Origin: Myxococcota bacterium
GTDB taxonomy: Bacteria; Myxococcota; XYA12-FULL-58-9; JABJBS01
Direction of reading: 5' to 3'
Length of the DNA stretch: 64,000 nt
Assembly: GCA_036339465.1 (NCBI GenBank)
Contig: JAYZAY010000011.1
Location: 1-64,000 of the forward strand
Of this stretch, positions 57,009 through 64,000 are shown in pieces. Numbering within the stretch: position 1 is the first letter of the stretch; every line of letters starts with the position of its first letter. The notes under the pieces are model-generated. The model did not search any database and was not told the DNA's origin. It worked only from the letters and a program-made list of their open reading frames with translations. Made by a program: the position numbers and the translations under genes.

Positions 57009-57374
57009 TCATTTAGACAAGAGTGGGCCGAGGGCGTTCTTGAAATGACTGACGCCGAATGGCTTAGAGATTAAAAAATTTGCGCCATTATTATCCGCGA
57101 TTTTTCTGCGTTCATTGCTACCTTCCGAGGTAACGAATCCTATGGGAAGATTTGGATACCATTTCTTGACGATTTTGAGAAGTTCGAGACCATCCATGAC
57201 GGGCATGTTCCAATCACTAATGACTAGGTTTGGCTTCTCACTGGAAATTAAGTCGAGGGCATCTTTGCCATTGGCAGCTTGGATGAATTCCGCAGACTCC
57301 CATCCGGCGGCCTTAATATTTCGGATAACCAAACGCCTCATGGGCTTGCTGTCATCAACGACGAGTATCTTCAT
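57009..57374 (-). CDS. Single-domain CheY-like response regulator
   Basis: ILVVDDS, ISDWNMPVMDG, FVTSE, ISKPF. Confidence 0.93.
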   Translation of the reverse strand: MKILVVDDSKPMRRLVIRNIKAAGWESAEFIQAANGKDALDLISSEKPNLVISDWNMPVMDGLELLKIVKKWYPNLPIGFVTSEGSNERRKIADNNGANFLISKPFGVSHFKNALGPLLSK

Positions 57375-57476: not shown

Positions 57477-57929
57477 TTAGTCTACGACGAGGACTTTCGT
57501 ACCATCCTGTGCTGTTTCGGATGCCACATAACCAATGGCCCCTTTATGGGCTTTTACGAAAGCCATGAGTTCCGTTTCAGAGGTGAAAGTCGGGGGCATC
57601 TTACCTTTTCCGGAGAAGACCATTTTACGCCAGTAGTTGGTAAATTGCTTGGCTGTTTTGCCCGCAAATTTTTTCATGAAGCGTTCGTGGAGGTCTCCTG
57701 TCTTCAATGTCACCAGAACAACTTGGTCACCGTTACCCCATTTTTTCATTTTGCCCAGAAGAATTTTCTTGAGTTTTCCTTTAGAGATGGTGGCCACGGG
57801 GTTGTCTGCTTTGACAATGGCCACGTCATCAGCCAAAGCACTGGATGCCCCCAGCATCATTAAAGCAGTGAAGAGACATGTCAGATCTATCTTACTTTGC
57901 CTTGCGCGTGATTTGATCAATCTGGTCAT
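57477..57929 (-). CDS. Small periplasmic binding protein (single-lobe PstS/PBP-like)
   Basis: Signal peptide ending ALA; DVAIVK..NPV..IS...LKKILLGK..KWGNG, YWRKMVFSGKG..P, FV....GAIGYV; GGGGGAG RBS directly after porin stop. Confidence 0.85.
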   Translation of the reverse strand: MTRLIKSRARQSKIDLTCLFTALMMLGASSALADDVAIVKADNPVATISKGKLKKILLGKMKKWGNGDQVVLVTLKTGDLHERFMKKFAGKTAKQFTNYWRKMVFSGKGKMPPTFTSETELMAFVKAHKGAIGYVASETAQDGTKVLVVD

Positions 57930-57944: not shown

Positions 57945-59309
57945 CTAGAACGTCACCGTGGTTTTGAGTCCAAAGATTGTCCAATAGCGCTCTAGGTATG
58001 GATTGTCTGGATTGTCTTTTTCGCCAACCATAATGGTTCCATCTATAAGGTGGCCCTCGATCTTAAAGAGCCAATAGTCAGTGATATCGAAGCGCATGGA
58101 CAACGCTAAGTCTTTGGAGAATGCGTTGTAGTGGGGTTGTAAGAGTTCATCGATGCCATTTCCATAGATCCGGTTACCGGCAAGGTCTTTACAGTCTAAA
58201 TCCCCGTTTCTGCAGGTAGGATCGTTTTGAACAGAGAGGTAAGTCGCTGCTTCAAACCAATCAGTGAAACGGTAAGAGAGTTGCACGTACCAACGTTCCT
58301 GATTCAAAGCCATGTTGCTAACGAAGGTGTTGTTGCTCAGGAAATCACCATGGTAACGCGCATATTCCGCAGCGAACACTGCGTTTTCATAGGTGTATTC
58401 AAGGGACGCAACCCAAAACACGGTATTTGGAAAAGTGATTCTGAAGTCTTTTTGACTGATCGAACTTACGAGTCCCCGTCCCATGAGTTCATCGAAGTAG
58501 GCATCACCGATTTGGCCTTCGGCGTAACTGCTGCCGAATCGTAGGTGTGTGAATTTGAGTAGCAATGTACCCCATTTATAGTCGGTGAGGTCTTCGAGTG
58601 GGGTATTCCATTGAAGCGCGAGGCTGGTCATTGCAGAATTGTACAGGTCGGATACGTTAATCGCGTAGATACCCTTGAATTGGTCATAGCCACGGTTCTT
58701 GAAGAAGTCTGTGACCGACGAATTATCTGGGTCAGGTACGCCCCGTCTGCCGTAACTGACCTGATAATCGAAAGACCCCAAGGAATAGTCTGAGAGGTCG
58801 ACGTTGCCGTAGGCTTGTACGCCGTTGAAGGCGATTAGAAGGTCTCGGAGGGCCAAGTAGTACACGCTGGGCGGCATTAAAACAGTGGTTCGTGTTAAGT
58901 CCAAGTCTTGATACTCACCATAAAGTCCGTAGGGCTGCTTCACGAGGCCGGCTCGTAGGTTAAACCAGTCGGTGATTGAGTAATCGATAAATGCCCAGTC
59001 CACTTCTGGTCTAAGGTTACCTAGCGCCCCCAGGGTTCGAGCAAAAATCTGAGTGCCAACTCGGGCGTCCCCTAGGTCGGCACCAAAGTTCAAGCCTATT
59101 TCTCCGTAGGCCAGCGAGCCATTCTTTGTTTGACCGAGGTAATTGTTGCCCGTCGATTTAAGATAGCCTTGACTTACAAAACCATGGACATCGACTTGTG
59201 CGTTTGCAATGGGACTCAGAAGCAGAAAAAAGGCGGCTATGAATGTACACCCCCACTGGGCCAAGAGTGGCTGTTTCGTTGCGAACCATACGGCCCTATT
59301 TTGGCTCAT
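57945..59309 (-). CDS. Outer-membrane beta-barrel (porin-like)
   Basis: Signal peptide ending ANA; VHGFVSQGY, VDWAFIDY, LRAGLVKQPYGLY, RFD...WLFKIEGH; C-terminal beta-signal TTVTF; GGAG RBS before ATG 59309. Confidence 0.85.
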   Translation of the reverse strand: MSQNRAVWFATKQPLLAQWGCTFIAAFFLLLSPIANAQVDVHGFVSQGYLKSTGNNYLGQTKNGSLAYGEIGLNFGADLGDARVGTQIFARTLGALGNLRPEVDWAFIDYSITDWFNLRAGLVKQPYGLYGEYQDLDLTRTTVLMPPSVYYLALRDLLIAFNGVQAYGNVDLSDYSLGSFDYQVSYGRRGVPDPDNSSVTDFFKNRGYDQFKGIYAINVSDLYNSAMTSLALQWNTPLEDLTDYKWGTLLLKFTHLRFGSSYAEGQIGDAYFDELMGRGLVSSISQKDFRITFPNTVFWVASLEYTYENAVFAAEYARYHGDFLSNNTFVSNMALNQERWYVQLSYRFTDWFEAATYLSVQNDPTCRNGDLDCKDLAGNRIYGNGIDELLQPHYNAFSKDLALSMRFDITDYWLFKIEGHLIDGTIMVGEKDNPDNPYLERYWTIFGLKTTVTF

Positions 59310-59819
59310 TGAAGACAACTCCCGTGCGCGAGCGTTTTTCGTTGCATGAGTCCGAAAGTTCTTTAGCGAAGTCCGAAAATCCAGGCGAAGCCAATTTTCG
59401 ATTCTGTTTCAACGTCGGATTCCCCTCAGGTGTTCACTGTCTGTCCGTGGTGGGATAAACGCCTTTATGATTCCCTGATTTATGCGCATTTCATACCCCA
59501 GACACCAGTGCCCGACATTAATATCCATATCCGACCTTAAGTAAACTTCTTTACCCGCAAACTGCCCGAAACTTGTTTAAATTGATGATGATTACTGGAC
59601 CGCGAGGTTGTTTTTAATAAGCGTCTAAATATTTATTGAGCTCGTGTTAAGCGGTTTCTTTAGCATTGTTTTTTTAAGAACTTGATCCGAGATACTAAAT
59701 TGATGTCCAATAAGTACATAGAGGACCTGCGTGCTCTTTTCCAGGGGTTTAGGTTGTGAGCAAAGTGGTGAACGTAAGCTTGGGATATTGTGACTGGTGT
59801 ACTATTTCGGAGGGCGTGA

Positions 59820-61409
59820 GTGCGTATTACGGCTAAGATATGGCTTAGTGTCGGCGTATTATTTGGAGGCTATCTCTTCTCTATCGCGGTGAATTATCAT
59901 TTCGGAAAAGACAATGAGAGTCTCATCAGCAATGCGAGGGACATCATTTTTCCTGCCGCGCAAAAAGCACAAATGGTCGAAAGTGAGTTTTCGAAAATTC
60001 TCAAGGCCTATGAGGATTCGTCCATGTTGGGCGATTTAGAGGTGCTGGAAAAGACAAAGGTTTGGCAGAAAAGAGTCGAGAATGAATTACGCTCAATAAC
60101 GGAATTTGGGGGGTTGGAGGAGAATTTAGTATTGGAGGCCAAGCGCCTACTCAAAGATCTTAGCACGTTGTCAGCCAAAGCCTTCAAGGTATACGGCGTT
60201 TTAGCATCCGGGGAAGAACTCGAAGATTCCGAAATAGCGGGTAAAGTTCGTCGTGAAAATCAGGCGTTAAAAGAGAGTCTCGGGAGGTTTTCAACCGCGC
60301 TTTCCACTGCACTGGAAAATCAATTGGATTTGGCCGCTGAACAATCCACAAATAGTCGCAACTTAGGATTTGTTGTTTTTGTCGTCACCGTCCCGATTAC
60401 TCTATGGAGCATTATCTTTGTGATTCGGAGACTCATTTCACAGCCCTTGCAGGCCATTGTGTCGCGCCTACGAGATATTGCTGAAGGGCAAGGGGATCTC
60501 ACCAAGAGAGTGTTGGTTACGAATCGCGATGAGATTGGTGAATTGGCGGATTGGCTCAATGTCTTTCTCGAAAAGCTTCAAGGCACTATCGAGAGTGTAG
60601 CCGACACCACAGAAACCCTATCGAGTTCGGCACAAGCTCTGGCAGGAACGTCTTTGGAAATGGGCGGAACCGCCGATGAAACCTCGGTGAAGGCGGGCGA
60701 TGTTTCGAGTTCAGCTGCTCTCGTAAGCGAAAATGCTCAGAGGGCAGCCGTTGGGGTCGAGCAGATGAGCTCCAGCATTCGGGAAATCGCCAAGAGTGCC
60801 AATCGGGCCGCTGAGGTCGCCCGTTCTGGGGTGGAGATGGCGCGAGTGACCAATGAAACCGTGGTTCGTTTGGGGCAGAGTAGCGCCGATATTGGTAAGA
60901 TCACTTCGGTTATTACAGGGATTGCCGAACAGACAAATCTCCTGGCTCTCAATGCCACGATCGAGGCGGCTCGGGCCGGTGAATCAGGCAAGGGTTTTGC
61001 GGTGGTGGCCACTGAGGTGAAGGATTTGGCCAAGGAAACCGCGAAGGCGACTGAAGGAATTAGAGAGAGGATTCAAGGTATTCAAGAGGAATCCGTGGCT
61101 TCAGTTGATGCTATTGGAAAGATAGTGAGGATTATTCAAGAGATAAGCGATTTGCAGGCGGGAATTGCGGGTGCGGTTGAAGAGCAGAGTTCGACCATGG
61201 GCGACATTGGTCGCAGCGTCTCGGTGGCCGCTGAAGGAAGTACAGATATTGCGTCGAGCATCATTATGGTGGCGGATGCAGCAAATGCCACCACAGGCGG
61301 TGCCAGGAATACGGAAGAAGCAGCGGCGGATTTATCCATGATGTCCGGTGAGCTTACGAGCCTGATTGGACAGTTCCGGTATCGTGACGATGACGATCTT
61401 GGTTTCTAA
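59820..61409 (+). CDS. Methyl-accepting chemotaxis protein (periplasmic helical sensor, HAMP)
   Basis: TM1, ~150-aa helical periplasmic domain, TM2, HAMP ([11 protein letters not shown]...DEIGELA), [30 protein letters not shown]. Confidence 0.95.
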
Positions 61410-61621
61410 ACCTTATGTTATGACGCAACGCACAGGCGACATATGCCTAAGCTCTCATACAAATGTTTGCTTCAGTGGCTTATTAAGAAAAGGCTGAAAT
61501 TATTGTGACTTTTGGCTGAGGCTGTTCTAACAATTCCAGATGAATTTTTGGGCGGCCCTCTCGTTTCTCTTTGAGACGGGGATATTTTCCAGGCGGCGCT
61601 AACAATGAGGGGGGGTGCAAG

Positions 61622-64000
61622 ATGCTAAAACGTAGCCTGTTGGCTCTTTTTGGTATTGTCTTGTTAAGTGGCTGTGAAGCTTTATTTCCAGAACCATCAA
61701 CAACGCATGACTTGGTTCAAGCTGGGGTCGATGAAGGCCTAACGGAGGAAGCGATTCCTGCTGGTGCACAAGGAAATGTGGCAGCGGTTTTTGATCCGGT
61801 CAATGTGGATATTCCCTATCCCAACAACCTGCTTTTCGCTGCCGGTGGATCCGGGCCAACCGATGGGACGATGAACATTCCCATGGGGGGCGAATGTACG
61901 GATCCGGCCGACCTCCCCGAGGGGGTGACAAAAGCCGATGAGAATTATTCGGATCCTTTTTTCGTTCTAAATACCTTGGATGGGTTCTCGACCCTCCAAC
62001 CCATGATATTCCGGTTCAATGGCAGTGTTGATCCAGACACGGTGGTCGCGGGTGAGACGGTCCGGGTCTTCGAAGTGGAATTGGCGAATTACCTCTTAGA
62101 CGCCAAGGCCGTGCGAGCGGAACTGGCGGCCCCCAATGCGCTCTTAGGGGTTTTGGGCGACTACACCGTGGAAGTGGTCACCGACAGCAGTTCGACCAAG
62201 GATGATACCGGTGAGGTCATCGGTCGTACTTATTACGACTTTGTTAAAATTGTTCCCACAAAGCCTTTGAAGCCCGACACCGCCTACCTTGTGGCGGTGA
62301 CCACAGGCATTACTGATTTGGGCGGCCATCCGGTTGGCTCGGCCACTCTCTACAAGTTGGCCAAAAGCAAGGCGTCCTTTTTTGATTCAGAGGGCAATCT
62401 CAAATCCGATCTACCCACCAGTGGTGAGCAGAGCTTTGGTCTTGCCAATGAAAAAAATCGAGACAGCTATGGTTCACTAGAAACCATCCGGAGCCTAACC
62501 AATACCTACGAGCAGGTGCTGGCGCCCTACATCCCCAGCGATGATATTGTCCTCTCTTGGGCCTGGACCACCCAGTCCACCGACAACATGCTCAAGACCA
62601 TTGTGAAGAATGTCAAAGCCGGTCGTTATGCCCTGGGGCCTGCGCTGCATCCCGCAGATACTTCCAAAGTATCCACCACCCGGGACCTCTGCCCCGAAGT
62701 CGCCACCGATGCTACTTGTAAGGTGATTGCCGATGCCACCGCATGCGGGGCCAATCCCCTCTGCACCCACACACCAGCCACGGGTTGTATTGCCAGCGGC
62801 TGCATCAGCTACAATCTTTTGGGGCTTTCGGAAATCTATTTAGGTGCGGTGGAGCTTCCCTACTTTCTCAAGACCGGCAACAAGAGTCGAACTTCTTTTT
62901 GGGAAGGTCACTTGGGCCAATACGCCACGCGGTTTTACTCTGCCGGTTCAGGTGGACTCGGACCGAAAATGTATGGTTCCGAGGTGGTTCCTTTGGTGGT
63001 TTCCATTCCTTCAGCGGTGCTGGGATGCTCCAAACCCTATAAGACGGCCATTTTTGCCCACGAGGTTTTAACCGACCGCACCACCATGGCCATCATCGCC
63101 GACTCCTTTGCGAAGGAGTGCATGGCCATGGCTGCCATTGATCTACCCCTACACGGCATCAATAAGTACGAAGGCCCGGCCACTTCGAATGATCCGGCCA
63201 AGGGTCTCTCCCCCTACTATTTTGTGTCTGCGGATTTCCCCACCCCCCAGGCGTATAAAGCACTTCACGGCAATACCTGCGGCGTTTTAGATGCCGCCGA
63301 TTGCCACGCCAACCGCGTTTGTGAATTCGACAATGCCAACGATGTTTGCGGGGTTTCCAGCATTATTTATGCGTTCAACGGTGCCTGCGTCTCTTACAGC
63401 AATGAAACCGCCTGTACCGGGGGACAATCCTGTAGCTGGGATGGTTTTACTTGTTCGGCTGCGCCTATCGCCGGTGCCTATTCAAACCTACCGTGGTATT
63501 CAACTGTTTTGGGGCCGCTCCGTGAACGCCACTTTAACCTCGACTTCGCCGACAACAGCGCCGCTTTGGCAGTGGCCTCTCCCAACTATCCTACCGGCGA
63601 TGGCAAAGTTGATCCATCGGGATTCGACTTTATCAATCCCAATAAGCTCTTAACCACGCGCGACAATGTTCGACAGGCCGTTTCCGATTTCCTCGTGTTG
63701 GCCGAGACCATTCCTGAAATCACCGACAACTCAGAGGGCATGCGCCACCTCTTGAGAATCGGTGCCAAGTTTCCACACATTGTGGGTGGCCTAGCCGGAG
63801 GTGACACGAGCTACTCCATGAGGATGAATCTTGGTGAGGCTCTACCTGGGCTCTTCTCGGATCCCTCAGCCGCTCCCGAATTGGAAATACCTCAAGACGA
63901 GGGTGTTTGCAGTGCAGATCCAGCAACCTATTGTCGAATGAAAGACCCCACCAATCCTCTCTTGGGTGCACAATGCCCTCGTAAGGAATTGGATGACCGA
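61622..64000 (+). CDS. Large surface lipoprotein of the Pla-1/cef/VolA extracellular lipase family (3'-truncated; absent from ORF track)
   Basis: Hand-translated, 793 codons open to the window end: MLKRSLLALFGIVLLSGC lipobox; FDP..IPYPNNLLF, DGTMNIP, LNTLDGFST, PTKPLKPDTAYLVAVT, WTTQS, LPYFL, AIDLPLHG, ERHFNLD, DPSG..FIN...LTTRDNVRQAVSD. Confidence 0.88.
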   Translation, partial: MLKRSLLALFGIVLLSGCEALFPEPSTTHDLVQAGVDEGLTEEAIPAGAQGNVAAVFDPVNVDIPYPNNLLFAAGGSGPTDGTMNIPMGGECTDPADLPEGVTKADENYSDPFFVLNTLDGFSTLQPMIFRFNGSVDPDTVVAGETVRVFEVELANYLLDAKAVRAELAAPNALLGVLGDYTVEVVTDSSSTKDDTGEVIGRTYYDFVKIVPTKPLKPDTAYLVAVTTGITDLGGHPVGSATLYKLAKSKASFFDSEGNLKSDLPTSGEQSFGLANEKNRDSYGSLETIRSLTNTYEQVLAPYIPSDDIVLSWAWTTQSTDNMLKTIVKNVKAGRYALGPALHPADTSKVSTTRDLCPEVATDATCKVIADATACGANPLCTHTPATGCIASGCISYNLLGLSEIYLGAVELPYFLKTGNKSRTSFWEGHLGQYATRFYSAGSGGLGPKMYGSEVVPLVVSIPSAVLGCSKPYKTAIFAHEVLTDRTTMAIIADSFAKECMAMAAIDLPLHGINKYEGPATSNDPAKGLSPYYFVSADFPTPQAYKALHGNTCGVLDAADCHANRVCEFDNANDVCGVSSIIYAFNGACVSYSNETACTGGQSCSWDGFTCSAAPIAGAYSNLPWYSTVLGPLRERHFNLDFADNSAALAVASPNYPTGDGKVDPSGFDFINPNKLLTTRDNVRQAVSDFLVLAETIPEITDNSEGMRHLLRIGAKFPHIVGGLAGGDTSYSMRMNLGEALPGLFSDPSAAPELEIPQDEGVCSADPATYCRMKDPTNPLLGAQCPRKELDDR

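Follow-up and report, generated by a model that had tools for sequence, protein, structure and literature searches.

At the end of the 64,000-nucleotide stretch of DNA analysed here (the window; G000:C11:1-64000) lies the start of a gene for a large lipoprotein, P0002, that by sequence homology is a member of the VolA/Pla-1 lineage. The stretch is a piece of a 185,623-base contig, on which contig and window coordinates are identical, and comes from the metagenome-assembled genome (MAG) G000 of a marine myxobacterium (4.17 Mb, 102 contigs, completeness 92.8%). At the positions of the catalytic serine and of the oxyanion-hole glycine of its relatives, the lipoprotein carries Gly1364 and Glu481, and as judged from these residues it is no longer able to act as a serine hydrolase. 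Because the serine needed by such enzymes has been lost, the protein probably binds its target rather than cutting it. On balance, we lean towards a catalytically dead, disulfide-stapled envelope lipoprotein that would bind a ligand in the former acyl pocket.

Results

Family membership and loss of the active-site serine

The lipoprotein gene (61622-66469, forward strand) comprises 1615 codons and runs beyond the window end on the same contig. The sequence-only reading that had singled it out described a frame of 793 codons open to the window end, which translation bears out, and extension along the contig leads to a stop at 66469. Given the base composition of the window, frames of 793 and of 1615 codons would stay open by chance with probabilities of about 3e-19 and 2e-38, respectively. 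The start codon, ATG at 61622, is preceded by the Shine-Dalgarno-like string GAGGGGGG, and the lipobox cysteine, Cys18, is unchanged across a 10-sequence alignment (A2).

The Pla-1/VolA-like identity proposed in that reading was confirmed by hidden Markov model searches, which matched both Pfam Lipase_bact_N (E 3.9e-14) and NCBIfam TIGR03502, the VolA/Pla-1 phospholipase model (E 1e-47), in a protein with a lipobox. The TIGR03502 match amounts to 162.8 bits in four stretches and lies below the curated cutoff of 383.9; among the relatives, the Ser-less proteins of G003b (786 residues) and G001 scored 276.3 and 172.1 bits, and the Ser-bearing P0174 428.5 bits. Source records name family members only 'hypothetical protein', and a sequence search of the PDB gave no meaningful match (best E 0.092, to kinases). 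A family profile built from 127 shorter relatives, with G000 excluded, matched the lipoprotein at 426 bits (426.2; E 1.4e-131) in three pieces, profile positions 7-413 falling on residues 2-518, positions 419-484 on residues 632-703 (69.4 bits) and positions 484-691 on residues 1347-1611. Because these three pieces are colinear, the hydrolase fold is complete, yet split by three insertions (Table 1).

An altered oxyanion motif, HE for the HG of the family within the string IFAHEVLTDR (63059-63064), had been pointed out from the letters alone, and both the translation and the profile alignment agree with it; HE was not seen at this site in any other relative examined. The lack of a GxSxG motif after RDNVRQ, likewise noted, also stands: a regular-expression search found no G-x-S-x-G string in residues 686-793 or in the whole 1615-residue protein. 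The elbow was located 680 residues after RDNVRQ, compared with 31-43 residues in ordinary members, and reads GLGMG, with Gly1364 for the serine. The spacing of 31-43 residues was read at 74 of 80 genome loci, the other six being three read at an earlier string, one that was N-terminally cut and two Ser-less Myxococcota loci. Extension of the contig, which had been suggested as a means of finding GxSxG, Asp and His, yielded the triad residues Asp1489 and His1552 and a nucleophile serine replaced by glycine; neither a complete triad downstream nor HE as a common motif of active homologues was found.

How regular the two lost residues are elsewhere in the family can be judged from several sets. 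The Ser column and the oxyanion Gly column hold Ser and Gly, respectively, in 219/219 Ser-bearing relatives, a set that was chosen for having both residues; in the unselected collection, Ser is kept in 121 of the 126 proteins of at least 550 residues, and 114 of those 121 carry H-G. A profile search contributed a further 115 proteins, 107 of which keep both Ser and H-G. When 15 Ser-less rows were compared with the 219 relatives, the oxyanion Gly column held Thr (7), Asp (7) or Glu (1), and the PGGG loop after strand b6 and the vPN motif after the acid proved to be lost too; columns past the elbow were countable in eight short Ser-less rows, and the long forms show the same losses in a separate reading. 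Because it fails three tests of the family, namely the curated score, GxSxG and HG, the lipoprotein should not be annotated as a phospholipase. The replacement of both residues supports the earlier suggestion of a lipase scaffold repurposed away from catalysis.

Table 1. Coordinates of the lipoprotein gene, its parts and its neighbours. Positions past 64,000 lie on the contig beyond the window.
Feature	Position	Strand	Basis or detail
Part of the lipoprotein gene in the window	61622..64000	+	793 of 1615 codons, stop-free (translation)
Lipoprotein signal peptide, lipobox L-S-G-C (Cys18)	61622..61675	+	Translation; N-terminus MLKRSLLALFGIVLLSGC
Immunoglobulin (Ig)-like N-terminal domain, Pfam Lipase_bact_N PF12262, residues 63-259	61808..62398	+	E 3.9e-14; 53.1 bits, above the Pfam cutoff (22.3)
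Insertion 1, Cys module 1, residues 357-394, six Cys, between Ig-like domain and hydrolase fold	62690..62803	+	Unaligned in profile alignment
First half of alpha/beta-hydrolase core, residues 401-518, strands b1-b4 and helix A	62822..63175	+	Profile alignment; pLDDT mostly 70-97 over model residues 1-120
H480-E481 at oxyanion-hole site (family H-G, after strand b3)	63059..63064	+	Profile IFqHGitrnRt on IFAHEVLTDRT
Insertion 2, Cys modules 2 and 3, residues 519-631, after strand b4 (DLPLHG)	63176..63514	+	Gap between profile pieces 1 and 2; pLDDT about 40
Family segment with RDNVRQ, residues 632-703, helix B	63515..63730	+	Profile alignment; helix at model residues 273-299, block pLDDT 80-94
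Insertion 3, orphan 643-residue insert, residues 704-1346	63731..64000 in the window, on to 65659	+	Gap between profile pieces 2 and 3
Second half of alpha/beta-hydrolase core, residues 1347-1615 and stop	65660-66469 (contig)	+	Profile alignment
Nucleophile elbow G1362-L-G1364-M-G1366	65705-65719 (contig)	+	Profile vsfvGhSLGgivg on VTMVGLGMGATVV
Gly1364 at catalytic Ser position	65711-65713 (contig)	+	Profile alignment
Triad Asp1489, kept	66086-66088 (contig)	+	Profile lpDqvvPn on DPTAPT
Triad His1552, kept	66275-66277 (contig)	+	Profile dHgSlldp on DHAAFLLP
Methyl-accepting chemotaxis protein (MCP), 529 aa	59820..61409	+	Pfam MCPsignal E 1.9e-32, HAMP E 2.7e-11
Porin-like outer-membrane barrel, 457 aa, C-terminus ...TTVTF, divergent	57945..59318	-	Neighbours 41-52% identical; porin-like structure rows
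Secreted half periplasmic binding protein (half-PBP), 150 aa, PBP_like_2-like, behind barrel	57477..57929	-	Pfam E 3.6e-5; 24.1 bits, below the cutoff (27)
CheY-like response-regulator receiver, 121 aa, behind half-PBP	57009..57374	-	Pfam Response_reg E 8.9e-22
Gamma-glutamyltranspeptidase (GGT), convergent, downstream	66493-68307 (contig)	-	Pfam E 4.4e-146

Predicted structure of the hydrolase core

A first AlphaFold2 run, on alignment A1, gave a mean predicted local distance difference test (pLDDT) score of 52.6 and about 28 in the elbow region, because MAFFT had set the G000 elbow in columns of its own. A second run was carried out on alignment A5 (53 rows), in which the elbow columns are in register; adding 400 to the numbering of this model gives the protein numbering. 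Here a strand (model residues 953-963), the elbow and a helix (965-983) form a block with a pLDDT of about 95, and the elbow glycines (G962 and G966 in model numbering) occupy A5 columns that are at least 90% conserved. The predicted secondary-structure elements come in alpha/beta-hydrolase order, the acid following b7 and the histidine following b8.

Comparison of this model with 48,161 chains by VIA-align returned alpha/beta-hydrolases throughout the list, the best being 7qjm_B (Z 23.1, root-mean-square deviation 3.2 A, 245 residues aligned, model residues 3-1198). Foldseek returned eight matches at E <=0.001, every one a hydrolase of this fold. Structure prediction, which had been proposed as a check, accordingly upholds the lipase scaffold (elbow pLDDT about 95; Z 23.1 to 7qjm_B), and what it presents is an intact fold with a non-nucleophile glycine at the elbow, as in a pseudoenzyme. 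Among the VIA-align matches was DPP10 (4wjl_B, Z 19.1); DPP10 and the neuroligins have Gly at the position of the nucleophile serine.

A clade of Ser-less proteins

The lipoprotein is one of 16 distinct proteins found without the nucleophile serine, which is replaced by Gly in 14 and by Ala in two. Homologues are present, with intact frames, in 5/5 genomes of the same family, and the short members of the clade (741-840 residues) are without the large insert. In a phylogeny of 76 rows, all 11 Ser-less sequences grouped together (SH-aLRT 86), nine of them in an inner group supported at 99, and G000 clustered with the other long forms (98). Besides these 11, which were all the Ser-less sequences then known, the rows comprised eight whose H-x motif is unusual and alternate members of a list of 114 ordinary sequences (57 omitted), and the tree was built under LG+G4 by a quick search and rooted on the distant paralogue G001b. 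Outside the Myxococcota, a Ser-less elbow was found at 0 of 78 genome loci, 74 of which read cleanly as H-G with G/A-x-S-x-G; the cluster of the basal Ser-less protein P0108 has one member labelled Gammaproteobacteria by its submitter. By their sequences, the Ser-less proteins form one clade centred on one Myxococcota family. In the G005 homologue (L019:1028-3532, reverse strand), we also observed an extra C-terminal Cys-rich tail, about 25 residues with 7 Cys, which is absent in the other members.

The oxyanion glycine is replaced in all 16 Ser-less proteins, by Thr in eight, by Asp in seven and by Glu in G000 alone, so that each has an oxygen-bearing side chain at the former glycine. The triad Asp is kept in 15 of them (Asn in the G005 homologue) and the His in 14 (Phe in G002 and P0003). 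Such retention, together with purifying selection on the core, could be explained if the protein were still an enzyme of a non-classical kind, in which His1552-Asp1489 would activate water or the Thr, Asp or Glu at the oxyanion site would serve as a relocated nucleophile or acid. We consider such chemistry distinctly unlikely, since the replacing residue differs in kind, G002 and P0003 have neither Ser nor His, and the PGGG and vPN loops are gone too; furthermore, clade-specific conservation among the Ser-less rows was confined to two columns, neither of them near the triad.

A second member of the family is encoded in G000 (C64:18519-21170; L105:1520-4171, forward strand), a lipoprotein of 884 residues with a GQSLG elbow, GHA at the oxyanion site and both of the other triad residues, Asp and His. 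It also has a Cys-rich loop, which follows DFPYHG, and its N-terminal domain matches the family profile twice. Given this serine, the elbow and the two other triad residues, the organism has a likely active enzyme beside the Ser-less one. A Ser-bearing paralogue in the same genome is usual for pseudoenzyme paralogues.

Authenticity of the gene and selection upon it

As the source is a MAG of 102 contigs, and the insert has no homologue save one fragment (P0004), the serine-to-glycine change or the insert might have arisen as an artefact of assembly, or the gene might be a decaying pseudogene. In marine and seawater metagenomes, contigs from four public runs, which belong to three studies, agree with the gene at 99% or better; no RNA data set was listed as holding it. 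The Gly1364 codon was covered by runs X1, X2 and X3 and the His-Glu codons by X1, X3 and X4, with no other letter at either, and both junctions of the 643-residue insert were bridged by contigs of independent runs. With this agreement, an uninterrupted frame of 1615 codons, the loss of Ser common to 15 other proteins and purifying selection in the relatives, a broken or mis-assembled gene is scarcely credible.

Selection was assessed on two relatives of one genus, G001 and G004, rather than on G000 itself. The proportion of nonsynonymous differences (pN) was 0.14 for the N-terminal and 0.17 for the C-terminal part of the core and reached 0.26 in the insert, with synonymous proportions (pS) of 0.75-0.82; a numerical dN/dS is not given because synonymous sites are saturated at these values. 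At the level of coding sequence, this comparison shows purifying selection throughout the Ser-less gene, with the insert evolving about twice as fast.

Cysteine modules and the large insert

Three inserted 4-Cys modules and a further Cys-rich stretch near the window end had been remarked upon, and all were found where described: the 4-Cys strings span residues 366-389, 553-576 and 589-611, and a fourth group (C763, C771, C785 and C795) opens insertion 3. The spacing C-x7-8-C-x5-C-x6-8-C occurs 13 times in genome frames of at least 150 codons (1.35 million residues), and three of these occurrences are in the lipoprotein frame. That the modules would be disulfide mini-domains, as the sequence-only reading had it, fits the cysteine spacing, but in the structural model they appear at a pLDDT of only about 40. 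When insertion 2 was searched against its own genome by tblastn, only the self match was obtained at E < 0.7. So many Cys pairs at short range suggest that the protein resides in an oxidising, extracytoplasmic place.

Insertion 3 is rich in Ala (15.2%) and Gly (10.9%) and has 12 Cys, mostly in short-range pairs. It is predicted to be about half helical, with pLDDT values of 25-50 except over model residues 610-680 (65-79), and it exits the core between helix B (RDNVRQ) and strand b5, a point which, from the usual topology of the fold, would lie at the edge away from the active site. Inserts occupy the same site throughout the long-form sub-branch, with 643 residues in G000, 451 in G001, 441 in G002 and 443 in P0003. 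No BLASTP similarity was detected between the G000 insert and the other long-form inserts at E <=1, and those of G001 and G002 are alike over their first 110-180 residues only, at 27-29% identity. A search of 1.84 billion representatives gave 382 matches at E <=0.001, and among the 150 listed the 240-residue fragment P0004 was the sole hit lying best inside the insert. A word-index search for stand-alone relatives of the insert among shorter proteins again found P0004 only, tblastn of the own genome found no paralogue of the insert (self only), and an ESM Atlas query with the insert gave a best score of 0.81, below lead level.

One other protein of this genome has comparable cysteine inserts. 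A PilW-like minor pilin (G000:C30:46214-47713, forward strand), with the prepilin N-terminus GFTLVELMVT, carries several of them, and one, C..NET.C.....CSWD....C, is close to Cys module 3 of the lipoprotein. From this likeness, a small disulfide module may be shared by extracellular proteins of this organism.

Several of these features would suit a surface adhesin or a structural envelope protein, in which the dead fold would be a scaffold and the Ig-like domain, the Cys loops and the insert would contact prey, particles or kin cells, with no small ligand involved. The Ig-like N-terminal domain, the similar Cys module in the pilin and a long insert that evolves fast (pN 0.26 against 0.14 in the core) and gives no BLASTP match at E <=1 with the G001 or the G002 insert are all in keeping with such a role, and among animal proteins the neuroligins provide a precedent for non-catalytic alpha/beta-hydrolase folds in adhesion. 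We nevertheless hold this role to be possible but unlikely: the hydrolase core is more conserved than the insert and no adhesin family was matched in Pfam. Moreover, because Ser is missing from the short clade members too, which have no large insert, the insert cannot be the common function of the clade.

Neighbouring genes

The MCP gene stops at 61409, leaving a gap of 212 nt to the lipoprotein ATG, and the spacing reported from the letters is therefore right. Between the two genes lies a weak terminator-like hairpin (61559-61581, forward strand), followed by ATATTTTCC; a scan for promoters and terminators gave site counts not above those of shuffled sequence. The lipoprotein gene has a GC content of 0.541 and the adjoining GGT gene one of 0.563, the contig being at 0.48, the genome at 0.489 and the highest 5-kb window at 0.543; both genes stand at the upper end of the 5-kb range of the contig. 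Horizontal transfer of the lipoprotein gene was considered on the basis of composition, and no clear signal was seen, given the GGT gene and the top 5-kb window. In PADLOC, the lipoprotein, barrel, half-PBP and MCP match no defence family.

The lipoprotein had been tied to a porin-PBP-MCP module. In G001, G005 and G003b, a counterpart of the barrel (41-52% identical) lies upstream of the Ser-less gene in divergent orientation, which together with G000 makes 4/4 syntenic loci with a readable upstream side; G002 and G004, which end at contig edges, and G003a, a paralogue elsewhere, are not among these loci. The half-PBP is present at three of the four (G000, G001, with 58% identity, and G003b), the MCP at two (G000 and G001) and the CheY-like receiver at the same two, none being seen in the G005 and G003b loci. 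Downstream, GGT is found at 4/4 readable loci, being the neighbour in G001, G002 and G005 also, and the gene for the hibernation-promoting factor (HPF) and an amine oxidase gene hold their position in same-family loci as well. These genomes are all members of a single family in which the order of unrelated genes (HPF, GGT, amine oxidase) is likewise preserved, so common ancestry can account for the linkage of barrel and MCP. Of the proposed module, the barrel is the constant neighbour (4/4), with the half-PBP at 3/4 and the MCP at 2/4 loci, and gene linkage to the barrel is weak evidence of shared function.

Both the MCP and the receiver occur in G000 and G001, and both are missing at the syntenic loci of G005 and G003b, which suggests a chemosensory pair that is acquired or lost jointly. 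The half-PBP matches just one lobe of the PstS-type PBP_like_2 domain. The pair of half-PBP and barrel, kept in G001 and G003b, may, from its sequence matches, reflect a phosphate or phospho-ligand theme.

A parallel with VolA and FadL had also been drawn; the neighbouring barrel looks like a porin rather than like FadL. The ESM Atlas structure rows for the barrel give TM scores of 0.68-0.79 to porin-like clusters, and in Pfam the matches are to Porin_O_P, weakly (2/4 members, best E 0.0067), Porin_4 and OMP_b-brl, with no match to Toluene_X (FadL) at E <=10. FadL identity of the barrel is accordingly unsupported.

Discussion

Comparison with known proteins

VolA of Vibrio cholerae (VCA0863) is presented, in those portions of the report that we draw on (PMC3656444), as a surface lipoprotein with a GxSxG motif whose gene is cotranscribed with fadL. 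The present lipoprotein resembles the VolA/Pla-1/cef family in its lipobox, its Lipase_bact_N domain, a colinear hydrolase core, the motifs DLPLHG and RDNxRQ and the triad Asp and His, and it resembles VolA further in having an outer-membrane barrel gene next door (fadL in Vibrio, according to the same portions of PMC3656444; porin-like here). It differs from VolA and Pla-1 in having Gly for the elbow Ser and HE for HG, in the loss of the PGGG loop, in its three insertions, one of them of 643 residues, which set the elbow 680 rather than 31-43 residues after RDNVRQ, and in its TIGR03502 score (162.8 bits, against 428.5 for the Ser-bearing P0174); unlike that of VolA, the neighbouring barrel does not look FadL-like.

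By analogy, the lipoprotein would work most like the animal non-catalytic alpha/beta-hydrolase-fold proteins, that is, DPP10 and DPP6, the neuroligins and the cholinesterase-like domain of thyroglobulin. As in these, the fold is kept under selection after loss of the Ser, and its use would, as we infer here, be binding rather than catalysis. In contrast to the lipoprotein, however, they are eukaryotic, belong to unrelated subfamilies, include no bacterial lipoprotein and lack an insert of this kind at the step from helix B to strand b5. The Ser-bearing Myxococcota paralogues (C64, 884 aa; G001b, 762 aa) come from the same genome or family, are lipoproteins with the same domain order and, in the case of C64, share the Cys-rich loop after DxPxHG, but they have GQSLG with H-A (C64) or GHSLG with H-G (G001b) and no 643-residue insert.

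A full-text literature search, judged by titles and abstract openings, found no description of Ser-less members of the VolA family.

A proposed function and what weighs on it

The lipoprotein, derived from the VolA/Pla-1 family, keeps the Ig-like domain and the full hydrolase core, without the Ser, the oxyanion Gly and the PGGG loop. In the reading towards which we lean, its lipid tail would anchor it in the cell envelope, where the former substrate pocket may bind an acyl- or lipid-like ligand, holding it without cleaving it. The Cys loops, stapled by disulfides, would stabilise the protein outside the cytoplasm, and the fast-evolving, mostly helical 643-residue insert would make up a separate, variable domain that faces away from where the active site used to be. 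More weakly inferred, and by analogy, is that the lipoprotein acts with the divergent porin-like barrel much as VolA does with FadL, minus the hydrolysis.

A number of points weigh against this proposal. The kept Asp and His and the side-chain oxygen at the oxyanion site are not residues that a passive binder would obviously need. The insert and the Cys modules, to which the proposal assigns distinct roles, were modelled at low confidence (pLDDT 25-50). Linkage to the barrel was seen within one bacterial family only, in which unrelated genes stay in order too, and the paralogue G003a sits in a different gene context; the barrel itself looks porin-like rather than FadL-like.

A bolder extension, one that we find highly doubtful, would make the Ser-less lipoprotein the ligand-capturing arm of a lipid-sensing module. 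It would bind (lyso)phospholipid from prey or particles uncleaved and present it, via the barrel and the half-PBP, to the MCP and the CheY-like regulator. To our knowledge, the lipid-sensing protein of Myxococcus xanthus is still poorly defined. Lipid chemotaxis is known from that organism, and those portions of a review that we draw on describe the matrix protein FibA as important for it and name no receptor (PMC4880591). If the extension were true, the lipoprotein would serve a chemoreceptor as an accessory for lipids, in a lineage of myxobacteria.

Implications

Lipoprotein lipases of the VolA type are known to work at the cell surface, where they release fatty acids to be taken up, and dead alpha/beta-hydrolases are already a known theme; in the present case the loss is unambiguous, common to a clade and maintained under selection, and the insert is out of the ordinary. 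One sub-branch of the clade has, in addition, gained long, rapidly diverging inserts at a single site. For annotation, similarity to Lipase_bact_N or TIGR03502 would lead to the Ser-less proteins being mislabelled as lipases. For the study of pseudoenzymes, they offer a bacterial, lipid-related example derived from an alpha/beta-hydrolase, with 16 natural variants and, as a control, a Ser-bearing paralogue in the same genome. For the marine Myxococcota, the lipoprotein is a candidate non-hydrolytic lipid-binding protein of the envelope, whose gene lies near those for a porin and a half-PBP, with a chemoreceptor gene beside them in two genomes.

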